Part shown: one piece after another, positions 21,190 to 61,700 of the stretch
Position numbering within the stretch: position 1 is the first letter of the stretch
Layout: each line of letters starts with the position of its first letter
Assembly (NCBI RefSeq): GCF_003334335.1
Contig: NZ_QOWQ01000008.1
DNA length: 64,000 nucleotides
Reading direction: 5' to 3' (one strand)
DNA from: Escherichia coli
GTDB taxonomy: Bacteria > Pseudomonadota > Gammaproteobacteria > Enterobacterales > Enterobacteriaceae
The notes under the pieces: model-generated
What the model was told of the DNA's origin: nothing
Databases searched by the model: none
Seen by the model: only the letters and a program-made list of their open reading frames with translations
Program-made: the position numbers and the translations under genes

Positions 21190-21450
21190 TTAACAAACAG
21201 AGCAGAAAAAAAGCAAGTGAAGAGATTCTAAATAGCCTTCAAGAACAAGGCCATCCCTTTACCTAATTTTACGTATCTGAAATATATGTAACCTGACGAT
21301 CACTTTTTATTCCGTGATCAAAATCACCTCTTAAAATGCAATTTAGCAACCGATTGCAATAAAACATTTAAACAGATCACAAAATCACCTAAAATCGCCC
21401 GCTCGCGGCATATCCCGCTATGCCATTTTATTTTTGAACGCAGGCCAATC

Positions 21451-50855: not shown

Positions 50856-51634
50856 CAGTACGCCTTCCCAAGCGCCAGCCCCAGCGCGATGGCAAAGTCT
50901 CCACCTGGCGGCGGTAGCGGCGGCTGACGAACAGAAACGGCCTCCCAGGGATCAAATCCGCCTTCGCCACATATCGCGACGCTTTCGGGATCAACGGATA
51001 ACGCTGCCGCCAGCTCCTTCGCGCTAGTCATCCCCACCGCCAGTTTGCGCCCCCAGCTATAGCGCGTCGCCCACAGCCACTGTTCGTTATCACGCCAGGC
51101 CAGACATTGCTGATGAGAAGGTAAAAAAGGCAGGAATCGCTGTAATGCACTGGCATCCGGGGTGATCGCGCTCACATGAACACGCAACCTTTCTGCCAGA
51201 GTAAGCAGCGTTGCCAGCTCTTTGCTTTGCGCGGCAGTCACGTTATAGGCGGGACTGAGTGAGTCTTCGCTGTAATCGAAGCGCAGGGAGTCCGGATCCA
51301 TATCCAGCTCGCGGGCCATCGTCCCTGACAGCCAGGCCGTTTGCTCCCGCTCACCAAGGGACATCGACGGGCGCGGAAATGACCGCTGTAATGTGCGACT
51401 GGCGGGAAACGCCAACATAATGTGATGACGCTGCGGCAGTTCGCGACTCCACGGTAACAACGTTTTAGCCAGCTGCTGCGCATCAACAATCCGCCCATCT
51501 TTGATAATGTCGTTCTCCAGCGGCAAGCGCCACCAGCGTTGCAAAAAGCATTCTTTTGCGCCCCGCACGATCGCAACCGCTACCGCTTCTTGCTGTTGTA
51601 AATGCAAACCAATTTGCCAGATCTTAAATGCCAT
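50855..51634 (-). CDS. hofM: Hof system component HofM (PilM-like)
   Basis: ATG (complement cat 51632-51634) gives MAFKIWQIGLHLQQQEAVAVAIV (259 aa). Confidence 0.82.
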   Translation of the reverse strand: MAFKIWQIGLHLQQQEAVAVAIVRGAKECFLQRWWRLPLENDIIKDGRIVDAQQLAKTLLPWSRELPQRHHIMLAFPASRTLQRSFPRPSMSLGEREQTAWLSGTMARELDMDPDSLRFDYSEDSLSPAYNVTAAQSKELATLLTLAERLRVHVSAITPDASALQRFLPFLPSHQQCLAWRDNEQWLWATRYSWGRKLAVGMTSAKELAAALSVDPESVAICGEGGFDPWEAVSVRQPPLPPPGGDFAIALGLALGKAY

Positions 51635-58656: not shown

Positions 58657-59535
58657 ATGCCGCAACATGACCAATTACATCGCTATCTGTTTGAAAACTT
58701 TGCCGTGCGCGGCGAACTGGTAACCGTTTCGGAAACCCTGCAACAGATCCTTGAGAACCACGATTATCCGCAGCCCGTTAAAAACGTGCTGGCAGAACTG
58801 CTGGTTGCGACCAGCCTGTTAACCGCTACGCTGAAGTTTGATGGTGATATCACCGTACAGCTGCAGGGCGACGGTCCGATGAATCTGGCGGTTATTAACG
58901 GTAACAATAACCAGCAGATGCGCGGTGTGGCGCGCGTGCAGGGCGAAATTCCAGAAAATGCCGACCTGAAAACGCTGGTCGGCAATGGTTACGTGGTGAT
59001 CACCATTACCCCGAGCGAAGGCGAACGCTATCAGGGCGTAGTTGGTCTGGAAGGTGATACCCTGGCGGCCTGCCTGGAAGATTACTTTATGCGTTCTGAA
59101 CAGCTGCCGACGCGCCTGTTTATTCGCACCGGCGACGTAGACGGCAAACCGGCTGCAGGCGGTATGTTGTTGCAGGTAATGCCTGCGCAAAATGCCCAGC
59201 AGGACGACTTTGACCACCTGGCGACGCTAACCGAAACCATCAAAACCGAAGAACTGCTGACCTTACCGGCAAACGAAGTGTTGTGGCGTTTGTATCACGA
59301 AGAAGAGGTGACGGTTTACGATCCGCAGGATGTGGAGTTCAAATGCACCTGCTCGCGTGAACGTTGCGCCGATGCGCTGAAAACGCTGCCTGATGAAGAA
59401 GTTGATAGCATCCTGGCGGAAGATGGCGAAATTGACATGCATTGTGATTACTGCGGTAACCACTATCTGTTCAATGCGATGGATATTGCTGAAATCCGCA
59501 ACAACGCGTCTCCGGCAGATCCGCAAGTTCATTAA
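58657..59535 (+). CDS. hslO: Redox-regulated chaperone Hsp33
   Basis: ATG at 58657 gives [22 protein letters not shown]; C-terminal zinc-binding CxC...CxxC (CTCSRERC ... CDYCGNHY). Confidence 0.93.
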
Positions 59536-59597
59536 TGAGTATGTCCGGCAGAGAGGGCTCTGCCGGATTTTACGACTAATACACCTGATGCGCTTTG

Positions 59598-61322
59598 TCA
59601 CTCATTCAGATTCACATTCAGCCTTTCACCATCCACTACAAGATCGCGCCACGCTTTAGGCTTCGTTCCCAGTTTTCCATCCTTCGCAGCTGTGAGTAAT
59701 TTTTCTTTCGTTATTTCGTTCGGAAGTAAACTCATATCAAGCGCGTCCCATTCTTTTCTGTCTGAGTCAAAGCCATAGACAATGACTCTGTCATCATTAA
59801 AAGCAAACAGGATCCGCTCCGCCTGACCATCACTATTCAGATCTTGCTCGACCAGGACGCAGGCGTCTTTTTCAATACAGGTCATCACGTTATAGCGATC
59901 CTGGATTAAGGCCGACCAGAATGTCGCATCAGGTTTAACAGAACCAGGGGCAATTAACACATTATCGGCTAATACTTTTTCCGATACCTGTTGCTGAAGA
60001 TGTTGCTCTCCATCTAACGCCATCAGCAGATCCCGCGCGCGTTTCGGGTCTTTCATAAACCCGGCATCGCTTTTCAGCGACTCAAGCGCAGCACGTCCAT
60101 AGCGACCGCTCTGCTCGAGCATGTAGATAGTTACCTGGTCTGACGTGTTTTTGCCGCTCTGATAACGCGCCATATGGCTGTTCACGCTAATGCGCATACT
60201 GTCCAGCACCGGCGAATTAAGAAGCACCAGTATCACCAACACCAATAACGAAACCGCAAGGTTCACTTTGCCCTGAAGAACAACGGGATTTTGCCCTTTA
60301 CGCCAGACGATGCTGACAAAATACCCCAGCGACCACACCAGTAACACCAGCACCGCCAGCACGCCCTGCAAGCGGTCGACAGTCCAGCCGTACTGAGCGA
60401 CCCGCAGCCATAACGCCCAGGCGGCGACGAACACATACAGCGGAGCAACCAGCAAAGCGGTTTTAATCAGGCAACGCAACGGCCCTGTCCAGGGAAGTGA
60501 CGCTTTTTGCGGATCGCGGACAATAGCCATTAAGATCAATTGCAAAAAGGCCAGCGTCAACAGCAACCCGGCGGCGGAGATGTGGCGAGAAATCGCGCTC
60601 AGGCCCGTAAACGGCAGGGTGATGATAAACATCAGGGTTAGCAATGATACTAACGGCAGCAACCCCGTGGCGATTAACGTGAACAACTTTTGAATAGAGT
60701 CGATTAAACGTGACTGTGTTCGCGCGAGGATCACCGCCAGCGCGGTAACCAGACCTAACGTGAGATAAATAAACCAGTCGGTTGCAAAAAAGAGCGTATT
60801 GAAAAACGTGATGCCAACAAGTTTAAACAACTCACTCCACAGTAAAAGCACCAGCCACGTCAAGCCATTGGCGAGAAAAATCACCAGTAATATAAGTACG
60901 TTATGCCATACTGACTGGTAAAAATAGCGATAGCGGCTACTGTCATTGCGGATGCGAAGGCTTTGTTGTATCCACGGTAGCAACAACATTGCCATCAACA
61001 GCAGATAGCAACCAAAATCCCAAAGCGCCTTTTCAGCTCTCCAGGGGTTCATGCCATCAGTTTGCCACTTCAGCCAGCCGCTCATCCCCAGCGTGGCAAT
61101 AAACACTAGCGCCAGCCATCCCCAAAGGCGCTTCTGTTTAAAAGAGATCACGGAGAAGAGTAAAACGGATGAAAACGCGACGGTCGCAGGCACGCCATAA
61201 ACAATCCAACTGTGATTTTTTCCGGAAAGCCAGGCGATCAGCAGGTAGCAAACCAGACCCTGAAGTAATCCGGTAGCAATCATCCCCCAGCGTGTTGCGG
61301 GTGAAAGTTCAACGTTATCCAT
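59598..61322 (-). CDS. yhgE: Large polytopic membrane protein YhgE (unknown function)
   Basis: 574-aa ORF, many hydrophobic segments then soluble C-terminal domain. Confidence 0.85.
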
Positions 61323-61565
61323 GTTGGTTATCCAGAATCAAAAGGTGGGTTAATTATCGCATCCGGGCAGTAGTATTTTGCTTTTTTCAGAAAATAATCA
61401 AAAAAAGTTAGCGTGGTGAATCGATACTTTACCGGTTGAATTTGCATCAATTTCATTCAGGAATGCGATTCCACTCACAATATTCCCGCCATATAAACCA
61501 AGATTTAACCTTTTGAGAACATTTTCCACACCTAAAATGCTATTTCTGCGATAATAGCAACCGTT

Positions 61566-61583
61566 TCGTGACAGGAATCACGG
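61566..61583 (+). promoter_or_regulatory. Candidate CRP-like palindrome in pckA upstream region
   Basis: tcGTGAcaggaaTCACgg: GTGA-N7-TCAC dyad ~120 bp upstream of pckA ATG. Confidence 0.4.
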
Positions 61584-61700
61584 AGTTTTTTGTCAAATAT
61601 GAATTTCTCCAGATACGTAAATCTATGAGCCTTGTCGCGGTTAACACCCCCAAAAAGACTTTACTATTCAGGCAATACATATTGGCTAAGGAGCAGTGAA

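Follow-up and report, generated by a model that had tools for sequence, protein, structure and literature searches.

Organization of the yhgE/pckA locus

We analyzed a 64,000-nt stretch of E. coli DNA (the window), in which the gene order is yrfG-hslR-hslO-yhgE<>pckA-envZ. The genes yhgE and pckA are divergent and are separated by a spacer of 378 bp (61323-61700) with a GC content of 34-41%, compared with ~50% in the flanking genes. A previous sequence-only reading of this DNA had described a 574-residue YhgE with many transmembrane segments, encoded divergently from pckA across a gap of ~380 bp with AT-rich stretches, and all of this was borne out (~11 transmembrane segments are predicted). 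The genes and the nearest flanking element are as follows.

59598-61322, minus strand: yhgE (b3402), an ORF of 574 aa with a DUF4153 domain (annotation and Pfam)
61701-63323, plus strand: pckA coding sequence, phosphoenolpyruvate carboxykinase (ATP), 540 aa, with its ATG at 61701 (MRVNNG...)
59544-59567, no strand assigned: perfect inverted repeat, TCCGGCAGAG/CTCTGCCGGA, with arms of 10 bp and a loop of 4 nt, between the convergent genes hslO and yhgE (62-bp spacer)

Judging from its position, the inverted repeat is probably a bidirectional terminator. The enzyme encoded by pckA catalyzes the committed step when C4 acids are used for gluconeogenesis, and regulation of the gene by cAMP-CRP, Cra and CsrA is well known from textbooks.

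The YhgE protein and its predicted promoter

The product of yhgE carries the name YhgE or 'DUF4153 domain-containing protein' in 5,426 of 5,426 complete E. coli genomes. It is a member of Pfam DUF4153 (PF13687) by a significant match over the full length of the model (E=2.6e-31; residues 52-415 align with model positions 3-372 of 373), and ~2,000 clusters at 50% identity share its length and architecture. The protein is predicted to have a cytoplasmic N-terminus, the transmembrane helices mentioned above and a C-terminal domain (~160-200 aa) in the periplasm. This last domain (~160 aa) is not covered by the Pfam model; it contains a pair of conserved cysteines (C482 and C488) and a DLNxDGxxE loop. 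The DUF4153 family is without an assigned function, we found no solved structural relative of YhgE or DUF4153, and nothing in the present analysis hints at a function for YhgE, an uncharacterised DUF4153 membrane protein. The dN/dS ratio of yhgE is 0.17-0.22, against 0.01-0.02 for both pckA and hslO. It is a fast-evolving, dispensable and weakly constrained gene that has been lost repeatedly.

A candidate promoter for yhgE lies close to its start codon.

61353-61361, minus strand: extended -10 element of the predicted yhgE promoter, TGcGATAAT on the minus strand (from sequence)

Transcription from this element would start at ~61346, corresponding to position 3,532,463 of U00096.3, and give a leader of ~24 nt; we found no experimentally mapped yhgE start site in the literature. 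The pattern TGnGAnnAT is kept in this position in Escherichia, Citrobacter, Salmonella and Pseudocitrobacter and, as a variant, in Enterobacter, Lelliottia and K. georgiana; three other Kluyvera loci lack it. Across loci, the bases around the predicted extended -10 motif, in the ~90 bp proximal to yhgE, are not conserved.

The pckA promoter and leader

On the other side of the spacer, pckA has a promoter (P1, pckp) and a leader with several conserved blocks.

61505-61527, plus strand: conserved block, TTAACCTTTTGAGAACATTTTCC, -57 to -35 of P1
61547-61555, plus strand: extended -10 element of P1, TGcGATAAT, with a start at ~61562, -139 from the ATG
61611-61645, plus strand: very conserved leader block, GATACGTAAATCTATGAGCCTTGTCGCGGTTAAC
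61688-61693, plus strand: pckA Shine-Dalgarno sequence, AAGGAG, within the invariant TTGGCTAAGGAG

The position of pckp follows from a sequencing read at +17, which lies 156 nt from pckp (Mendoza-Vargas 2009). The pckA leader region corresponds to 3,532,679-3,532,818 of U00096.3. The sequence CTGC(C/G)ATAAT at P1 is conserved across loci. The block at 61505-61527 could be a region contacted by alpha-CTD (UP-like) or a poor -35 region.

CRP and Cra boxes in the spacer

Three predicted operators for global carbon regulators lie in the spacer.

61415-61430, plus strand: Cra (FruR) box, GGTGAATCGATACTTT (consensus match and conservation)
61464-61479, plus strand: CRP box 1, TGCGATTCCACTCACA, 16 bp, TGCGA-N6-TCACA (ChIP-seq/MEME, SELEX and PWM)
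61567-61582, plus strand: CRP box 2, CGTGACAGGAATCACG (PWM, SELEX table and conservation)

Box 2 corresponds to a dyad that had been described from the sequence as GTGA-N7-TCAC at 61566-61583 and likened to a CRP site. The dyad is real, but its spacing had been misread: GTGA (61568-61571) and TCAC (61578-61581) are separated by the 6 nt CAGGAA, so that the element reads cGTGA-N6-TCACg, with the canonical CRP spacing, at 61567-61582. In this form (CGTGA-CAGGAA-TCACG) it belongs to the 16-bp CRP motif TGTGA-N6-TCACA, including G4 and C13.

A count of sites with at most 2 mismatches to TGTGAN6TCACA gave 31 in the window against 25.7 expected, which looks like chance. We replaced this count with a more discriminating PWM, a log-odds matrix built from 105 ChIP-seq CRP sites and scored at 63,985 window positions, and the chance-level impression was reversed. 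Box 2 scored 12.87 bits and ranked 3 of 63,985, close to the median of ChIP-bound sites and above 48% of the training sites, and only 0.7% of spacer shuffles reached its score. From this rank and the shuffles, the dyad stands well above chance. Box 1, which the sequence-only reading had overlooked, scored 12.13 bits (rank 4 in the window).

The likeness of box 2 to a CRP site also agrees with published work. A genomic-SELEX table lists both boxes for the spacer 'yhgE< >pck', with box 2 entered as CGTGATTCCTGTCACG, its reverse complement (Shimada 2011). CRP occupies the yhgE/pck spacer in vivo, as shown by ChIP-seq in ETEC, where CRP sites cluster at ~-40.5 and -92.5. Box 1 is the site named for the yhgE/pck peak, as it is for the SELEX region and by PWM scanning; the ETEC ChIP-seq/MEME analysis named box 1 only, not box 2. 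A pck-lacZ fusion has lower activity in a crp mutant. Our literature search found no site-resolution CRP binding data for the yhgE/pckA spacer, and the ChIP-exo supplements do not contain pck.

Box 1 has its center at -90.5 relative to the pckA start, which makes it a class-I site by position. This site thus combines the CRP motif, a class-I position and conservation with in vivo occupancy reported at the level of the region. As in other class-I promoters with CRP near -92.5, pckA has an extended -10 element, no good -35 element and CRP-dependent lacZ expression; the arrangement is a textbook one that is already in databases, with nothing unusual about it.

The position of box 2 is different. 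Its center (61574.5) is at +13.5 from pckp (61562), in the transcribed leader, and so coincides with none of the positions compatible with activation (approximately -41.5, -61.5, -71.5, -82.5 and -92.5). From this place within initially transcribed DNA, box 2 could not serve as a classical activator of P1. A CRP box at +13.5 in a CRP-activated promoter is unusual. Box 2 resembles the CRP sites located across or downstream of a transcription start ('repressor CRP' positions) in being a good CRP-type sequence at such a place (Shimada 2011). Unlike the genes at those sites, however, pckA is overall activated rather than repressed by CRP, and the spacer of box 2 is itself conserved like functional sequence.

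The Cra box is centered at -139.5 from the pckA start. It matches gcTGAAtCGaTTCAgc at 11 of 16 positions with the core TGAATCGAT intact, as in a Cra operator, and is conserved in most genera. The bare Cra 12-mer occurs 3 times in the window against 3.14 expected, which is not above chance, so the weight of this assignment rests on conservation and the literature, in which pck is a known Cra target in vitro. ChIP-exo in vivo was negative for pck.

Conservation with and without yhgE

The Cra box, box 1, the block at -57 to -35, the extended -10 element, box 2 and the leader form a module that is conserved in comparisons covering 17 to 47 enterobacterial loci. Of 35 genome loci, 31 retain box 2 with a score of at least 8.5 bits (mostly 12-16); of 16 metagenome loci, 14 retain it with at least 9.9 bits. 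Its half-sites are a perfect CRP consensus in loci L044, L045, L046 and L050. The distance between the two CRP boxes is always 102-103 bp.

We compared the two boxes across the 31 loci that bear the dyad. In box 1, TCACA is invariant and the spacer is free to vary (column entropy of 0.598 bits in the spacer and 0.108 bits in the half-sites). In box 2 the spacer, CAGGA(G/A), is unusually conserved, with an entropy of 0.325 bits compared to 0.313 bits in the half-sites. Conservation of the spacer on a par with the half-sites suggests that something besides CRP also constrains these bases. Judged from its sequence and conservation, box 2 is a genuine-looking, evolutionarily maintained CRP-type box.

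At least seven loci (L044, L045, L047, L048, L050, L052 and L058) have no yhgE, with hslO directly adjoining pckA, and the same is probably true of L046. Box 1 is present in all of the yhgE-less loci and box 2 in all but L047, at the same spacing. The Cra box is kept in the yhgE-less loci L047 and L052, and also in L055, where the upstream flank is too short to place yhgE. The elements of a bidirectional pair would depend on the presence of both genes; here the module is kept where yhgE is missing.

A probable control region for pckA

Taken together, the most probable explanation, and one that we hold with some confidence, is that the spacer is a control region for pckA only and that yhgE is a separate neighbor with its own promoter. 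P1 would be an extended -10 promoter that starts transcription at ~61562 and gives a 139-nt leader. cAMP-CRP would activate P1 from box 1 at its class-I position, with the Cra box further upstream, and box 1 is presumably the site that CRP occupies in vivo. Box 2 would most likely act as a secondary operator through which cAMP-CRP modulates or limits transcription of pckA, and the box 2 transcript, a hairpin with GGA in its loop, may add a role at the RNA level. The yhgE gene would be driven by its own short promoter (the predicted extended -10 element at 61353-61361), outside the pckA module.

The pckA promoter and leader have already been studied, and the dyad is a published CRP box of pckA rather than of yhgE. 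Modest further interest attaches only to the maintenance of a good CRP box with a conserved GGA spacer inside the leader and to the very conserved leader blocks.

A possible RNA role for the dyad

A rather unlikely but still tenable alternative is that the dyad functions mainly as RNA, with its likeness to a CRP site being secondary. It would then be a stem-loop near the 5' end of the pckA transcript, GUGAC-AGGA-GUCAC with GGA in the loop, that could serve as a CsrA binding site, as a hairpin that stabilizes the mRNA, or as both. In the transcript the dyad starts at +6, and the hairpin has a predicted energy of -7 to -10 kcal/mol in most lineages. The AGGA loop is conserved far beyond what is expected of a CRP spacer. 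Pairing is kept through a series of changes in Citrobacter, from GUGAC/GUCAC through GUGAC/GUCGC (a U·G wobble) to GCGAC/GUCGC, the last being the C. gillenii variant, in which the CRP box is weakened, and in loci L047 and L028 CAGGAG is kept while the CRP half-sites are lost. In the opposite direction, L044, L045, L046, L050 and Atlantibacter have lost GGA but retain perfect CRP half-sites, and the minimum-energy fold in Atlantibacter differs from the hairpin.

CsrA is known to lower expression of pckA: a pckA'-'lacZ fusion goes up when csrA is mutated. The preferred target of CsrA is GGA within a hairpin loop. We found no report of direct CsrA-pckA binding. GGA is indeed placed in a short hairpin loop, as GUGAC-AGGA-GUCAC in most genera and as CGUGA-CAGGAA-UCACG in E. 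coli. With its short 5' stem, its AGGA loop and its increase in csrA mutants, pckA is like the GGA hairpins that CsrA binds (SELEX consensus RUACARGGAUGU). It differs from them in the spacing and retention of GGA. The distance to the GGA of the Shine-Dalgarno sequence is ~115 nt, whereas a CsrA dimer bridges 10-63 nt; the only nearer one is an E. coli-specific GGAG immediately 3' of the stem. In addition, the GGA of the hairpin is lost in several lineages (L040, L044, L045, L046 and L050).

Covariation in the bases flanking the hairpin was no better than in a permutation control (39 vs 38.3 paired cells), core covariation was weak, and the leader as a whole folds no better than shuffled sequences (z = -0.24). 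A search of 59400-61900 against Rfam, with E up to 10, returned no family. The 5' half of the dyad (61566-61575) can also base-pair with the leader segment 61631-61640. RNAalifold found this long-range helix 93.7% paired with almost no covariation, and the local dyad hairpin 79% paired with few compensatory cells. Because covariation is near nil in the long-range helix and the flanks and compensatory cells are few in the hairpin, the structure of the leader RNA is only putative. We prefer a DNA operator as the main role of box 2.

An unlikely variant combines both roles. Positions +6 to +21 of pckA may be dual-coded, as a DNA operator for cAMP-CRP and as an RNA hairpin for CsrA or for pairing with 61631-61640. 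If this were the case, two global carbon regulators, CRP and CsrA, would converge on one sequence, and with rising cAMP-CRP, box 2 and the site at -90.5 could together render transcription of pckA self-limiting or biphasic. Lineages would then keep one of the two functions: L044, L045, L046, L050 and Atlantibacter have the dyad but no GGA, and L047 and L028 have CAGGAG but no dyad.

A candidate second pckA promoter

Closer to the pckA start codon is a candidate for a second promoter, P2.

61662-61667, plus strand: candidate -10 element of P2, TACTAT, with a start at ~61675, -26 from the ATG

It is doubtful, but conceivable, that the dyad is an upstream CRP activator site of P2 and that the conserved 'leader' blocks are promoter or operator DNA of P2. 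A 454 read maps at -26, and TACTAT was marked as its -10 box (Mendoza-Vargas 2009). The pattern TAnnAT is kept in 47 of 47 loci, with invariant T, A, A and T columns, and the leader is conserved as DNA would be, including at would-be third codon positions and with almost no indels. However, P2 rests on that single sequencing read, lacks a good -35 element and was missed by the consensus promoter scan. The dyad center would be at -100.5 from the P2 start, ~3 bp off the class-I positions -92.5 and -103.5.

Proposed coregulation of yhgE and pckA

The sequence-only reading had proposed that yhgE and pckA share a control region and may be coordinately controlled. Under this proposal one CRP-bound region would drive both genes divergently, with cAMP-CRP co-regulating them, a reading that we likewise regard as doubtful. 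The arrangement itself would allow it: the spacer between the divergent genes measures 378 bp, it is bound by CRP both in vitro and in vivo, and there are cases of one CRP site serving divergent promoters (Shimada 2011). In having CRP bound between two genes, yhgE/pckA resembles araBAD-araC and gltA-sdhCDAB, divergent pairs that use one CRP site (Shimada 2011).

The comparison with these pairs fails in other respects. Boxes 1 and 2 are centered at ~-125.5 and ~-228.5 from the predicted yhgE start, neither class I nor class II positions, and, seen from yhgE, the dyad lies beyond the pckA promoter. The DNA next to yhgE lacks conservation, and the module outlasts the loss of yhgE. In the genomic-SELEX work the target given is pck, not yhgE (Shimada 2011); yhgE is unreported as a CRP target, and we found no literature that names yhgE and pckA together.

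Expression data point the same way. In a single microarray study of another strain, glucose-grown O157, yhgE went down 3.33-fold at the transition to stationary phase and clustered with growth-related genes. For pck, the literature reports activation by CRP and Cra. With the module kept in the absence of yhgE, and yhgE falling 3.3-fold upon glucose exhaustion, the proposal of coordinate control is unsupported. Because the Cra box is at ~-76.5 from the predicted yhgE start in E. coli, some cross-talk is possible. The preferred explanation remains that the module serves pckA and that yhgE is expressed from its own promoter.

Other features of the leader

By far the least probable reading, a terminator or attenuator formed by a hairpin and T-run at 61563-61592 in the pckA leader, was suggested by a scan that reported 9 pairs followed by TTTTTTG. 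The stem contains just 3 G-C pairs, and the scan returned 5 sites of this kind where chance predicts 3.3. The T-run is specific to Escherichia and Salmonella (TATTC in Citrobacter and AATTC in Pseudocitrobacter), and Term-seq has no 3' end in the pck leader and only one, 151 nt inside the ORF. On conservation and Term-seq an intrinsic terminator or attenuator is largely refuted, and we rejected it.

We also considered two upstream ORFs in the leader, one of 9 codons from the ATG at 61597 and one of 24 codons from the ATG at 61624, which ends 2 nt before the pckA ATG. We rejected both as coding sequences. The ATG at 61624 has no Shine-Dalgarno sequence ahead of it, the frames and lengths of the uORFs are not conserved (Citrobacter has a 1-nt indel), and their third positions are conserved.

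Two CRP boxes in the yhgE-pckA spacer

The order hslO, yhgE, pckA is annotated in 5,426 complete E. coli genomes (yhgE as 'DUF4153 domain-containing protein'); the 2.5 kb around the yhgE-pckA spacer are present in all 5,426 and 100% identical to many of them. The ORF list, the annotation and the start codon bear out the gene-level description of yhgE and pckA given in the sequence-only reading. The spacer has a GC content of 34-41% versus approximately 50% in the flanking genes and is thus AT-rich. Its principal features, with centres relative to the documented pckA start (P1, or pckp), are as follows.

59598-61322, minus strand: yhgE, 574 aa (ORF list)
61323-61700: yhgE-pckA spacer, 378 bp
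61361 to 61353, yhgE strand: TGnGAnnAT motif, aTGcGATAAT in E. coli
61415-61430: Cra box, GGTGAATCGATACTTT, centre -139.5
61464-61479: box 1, a CRP-like site, TGCGATTCCACTCACA, centre -90.5
61547-61555: extended -10 of P1, TGcGATAAT, with no recognisable -35
61562: P1 start
61567-61582: the dyad (box 2), centre +13.5, within the transcribed leader and upstream of nothing
61611-61645: 35-nt leader block, GATACGTAAATCTATGAGCCTTGTCGCGGTTAAC, almost invariant in Enterobacteriaceae
61662-61667: promoter-like hexamer TACTAT (TACAAT in most genera, TAGAAT in Kluyvera)
61701: true pckA start, ATG (MRVNNG...; reading frame from ORF list and sequence)

The dyad had been described as GTGA-N7-TCAC; it exists, but reading it base by base (GTGA at 61568-71, CAGGAA, TCAC at 61578-81) corrects the spacer by one base to 6 nt, which is canonical for CRP. 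A crude test, counting matches to the consensus with up to two mismatches, was chance-like over the 64 kb (31 matches, 25.7 expected). A symmetrised log-odds matrix was then built on 105 sites from the ETEC H10407 ChIP-seq table, with the two sites that lie within the window excluded. The first and second ranks went to known CRP targets, which validates the matrix: a site at 51161-51176 (GGTGATCGCGCTCACA, 14.56 bits), identical to that given for the ETEC CRP ChIP-seq peak within hofM, and the ppiA/tsgA box at 21313-21328 (CGTGATCAAAATCACC, 14.34 bits), listed by both SELEX and ChIP-seq. The dyad ranked third of 63,985 positions with 12.87 bits, about the median of ChIP-bound sites, and only 0.7% of shuffled spacers reached its score. 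Box 1, which had gone unremarked in the sequence-only reading, ranked fourth (12.13 bits).

The resemblance of the dyad to a CRP site is also on record, as it is already published as a predicted CRP box. The genomic-SELEX table for the spacer 'yhgE< >pck' lists two CRP boxes 100 bp apart, TGCGATTCCACTCACA and CGTGATTCCTGTCACG, the latter being the reverse complement of the dyad; pck, not yhgE, was named as the new CRP target, and pck-promoter activity was lower in a crp mutant (Shimada 2011). Box 1 was also predicted by weight matrix (AGGAATGCGATTCCACTCACAATA; Mendoza-Vargas 2009), and the site TGTGAGTGGAATCGCA of the high-confidence ETEC ChIP-seq CRP peak 'yhgE/pck' is the reverse complement of 61464-61479. 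The position of box 1 is near the class-I peak at about -92.5 noted in the ETEC study. P1 itself is placed at 61562, 139 nt 5' of the ATG, because a read at +17 is tabulated 156 nt downstream of pckp (Mendoza-Vargas 2009). Published work has long held pck to be an in vitro Cra target; ChIP-exo missed it in vivo, and expression data favour its activation by Cra and CRP. CRP control of pckA is thus established, and what lies between the two genes is the known promoter and leader of pckA. The label yhgE/pck is also carried by a weak GalR ChIP-chip peak (binding score 4.6; PMC5110547), whose inferred site, ATGATATCGTTTACA, lies within pckA at 61762-61776 (codons 21-26).

Conservation of the spacer

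A YhgE-alignment scan of species-representative genomes returned 42 Enterobacteriaceae loci, nearly all with the order hslO, yhgE, pckA. Across 17 genera the spacer alignment conserves the Cra box core, box 1, a block from -57 to -35, CTGC(C/G)ATAAT, the dyad, the 35-nt leader block and TTGGCTAAGGAGCAGTGA 5' of the ATG. By matrix score, box 1 reaches 11-14 bits at orthologous positions in most taxa. In 31 of 35 loci the dyad scores at least 8.5 bits, and usually 12-16, its distance to box 1 being 102-103 bp in every case.

The approximately 90 bp adjoining yhgE could not be aligned across these genera, except for TGnGAnnAT. This motif is positionally kept in Escherichia, Citrobacter, Salmonella and Pseudocitrobacter, takes a variant form in Enterobacter, Lelliottia and Kluyvera georgiana, and is missing from three other Kluyvera loci. 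We predict that it is yhgE's own extended -10 promoter, which would start near 61346 and give a 24-nt leader.

The proposed coordinate control of yhgE and pckA

The sequence-only reading had proposed that the two genes, which share the region containing the dyad, may be coordinately controlled. Scanning metagenomes for the invariant Shine-Dalgarno/start pattern yielded 16 further loci. In at least seven (L044, L045, L047, L048, L050, L052 and L058), and probably in L046, yhgE is absent and hslO lies directly 5' of pckA. Box 1 is present in every one of these, and the dyad in every one except L047, with unchanged spacing; the Cra box is kept directly 3' of the hslO terminator in L047, L052 and L055 (the flank of L055 is too short to judge yhgE). 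The module is therefore pckA's, independent of yhgE. Box 1 and the dyad lie at about -125.5 and -228.5 from the predicted yhgE start, distances ill-fitting for control, and in glucose-grown O157 passing into stationary phase yhgE drops 3.33-fold and clusters with growth-related genes. Coordinate control thus has no support and faces contrary comparative evidence. For E. coli this falls short of a formal refutation, because the yhgE start is a prediction and the Cra box lies about -76.5 from it.

Role of the dyad

In 31 sequences, column entropy in box 1 was 0.108 bits for the half-sites and 0.598 for the spacer, the expected behaviour of a CRP site. In the same sequences the dyad gave 0.313 and 0.325 bits; its spacer, CAGGA(G/A), is constrained like its half-sites, so these bases are also under some influence other than CRP. 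Read as RNA, the dyad forms a 5'-proximal hairpin that folds at -7 to -10 kcal/mol; its sequence is GUGAC-AGGA-GUCAC in most genera and CGUGA-CAGGAA-UCACG in E. coli. It resembles a CsrA site: such sites characteristically present GGA in the loop of a hairpin, a pckA'-'lacZ fusion is reported to be up in a csrA mutant, and one pair passes from U-A through U·G to C-G in a Citrobacter series. The RNA reading fares poorly when tested, however: covariation is small in the core and nil in the flanks (39 versus 38.3 paired cells), and RNAalifold favours a nearly invariant long-range helix of 61566-75 with 61631-40 (93.7% paired). The whole pckA leader folded no better than shuffles, and the leader region had no match in Rfam.

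The two elements also part company: L044, L045, L046, L050 and Atlantibacter lack GGA but have CRP half-sites that are perfect or nearly so (14-16 bits), and L047 and L028 keep CAGGAG with one or both half-sites lost. We consider the dyad most likely to be a genuine secondary CRP operator for pckA; its CAGGAG core may have an additional RNA-level or other role. We infer that this operator, at +13.5, would limit or modulate the CRP-activated promoter.

A scan also flagged the hairpin and a following TTTTTT as a terminator. We reject this reading because the T-run is not conserved and Term-seq has no 3' end in the leader; the one pck 3' end lies 151 nt into the ORF (window ~61852) and was not flagged as Rho-dependent (Adams 2021).

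The pckA leader and a candidate second promoter

Conservation of the leader is at the DNA level, and indels are very rare in it. T1, A2, A5 and T6 of TAnnAT were kept in 47 of 47 loci. A lone 454 read begins at -26, 7-8 nt downstream of TACTAT, which its authors marked as a -10 box (Mendoza-Vargas 2009). A second pckA promoter (P2) starting at -26 is possible, a lead and not a finding; the dyad would be centred at -100.5 relative to it. The 61611-61645 block and TAnnAT could represent P2 with an operator, or an RNA element pairing with the dyad.

Two overlapping small ORFs in the E. coli leader are probably not coding, as neither frame is preserved in Citrobacter, Salmonella or Enterobacter.

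61597-61627: ORF 1, ATG 61597, 9 codons, ending in ATGA (61624-27)
61624-61698: ORF 2, ATG 61624, 24 codons, TGA 61696-98, 2 nt before the pckA ATG

The YhgE protein and its 3' flank

Pfam DUF4153 spans YhgE residues 52-415, and NCBIfam has no model for the protein. The family comprises 2,043 clusters at 50% identity (E<=0.001), most full length. An AlphaFold model built with 63 homologues was confident (pLDDT 93.8), with about 11 transmembrane helices, and resembled none of the solved structures. By the positive-inside rule, the model would have a cytoplasmic N-terminus and a periplasmic C-terminal domain of approximately 200 aa. This placement fits a nearly invariant cysteine pair (C482 and C488) and a DLNxDGxxE loop, which we take to be reminiscent of calcium-binding DxNxDG loops. 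Both lie in a part of the domain outside the DUF4153 model.

~59610-59960, minus strand: YhgE C-terminal domain, residues ~455-570

YhgE evolves about ten times faster than the flanking genes, and several lineages have lost it. Its identity to the Salmonella counterpart is 57% (PckA and HslO, 93-94%), and within Escherichia its dN/dS is 0.17-0.22 versus 0.01-0.02 for its neighbours. In Evo3A, an evolved population of MG1655 that tolerates ampicillin, the yhgE start codon is mutated (M1L; window 61320-61322) alongside a cyaA nonsense mutation (PMC7394356), a curious pairing with a cAMP gene in a single population.

The 62-bp spacer between the convergent hslO and yhgE holds a perfect inverted repeat that is probably a bidirectional terminator, and shows weak peaks in genomic SELEX with two minor sigma factors.

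59544-59567: 10-bp inverted repeat with a 4-nt loop

Term-seq also lists, antisense to yhgE, a 3' end sensitive to bicyclomycin (U00096.3 3530894, window ~59777; Adams 2021), which is probably read-through from hslO. In the clinical E. coli AF58 (L001, NZ_OZ547038.1), IS1414 (IS256-like) is inserted between hslO and yhgE at 1670-2878.
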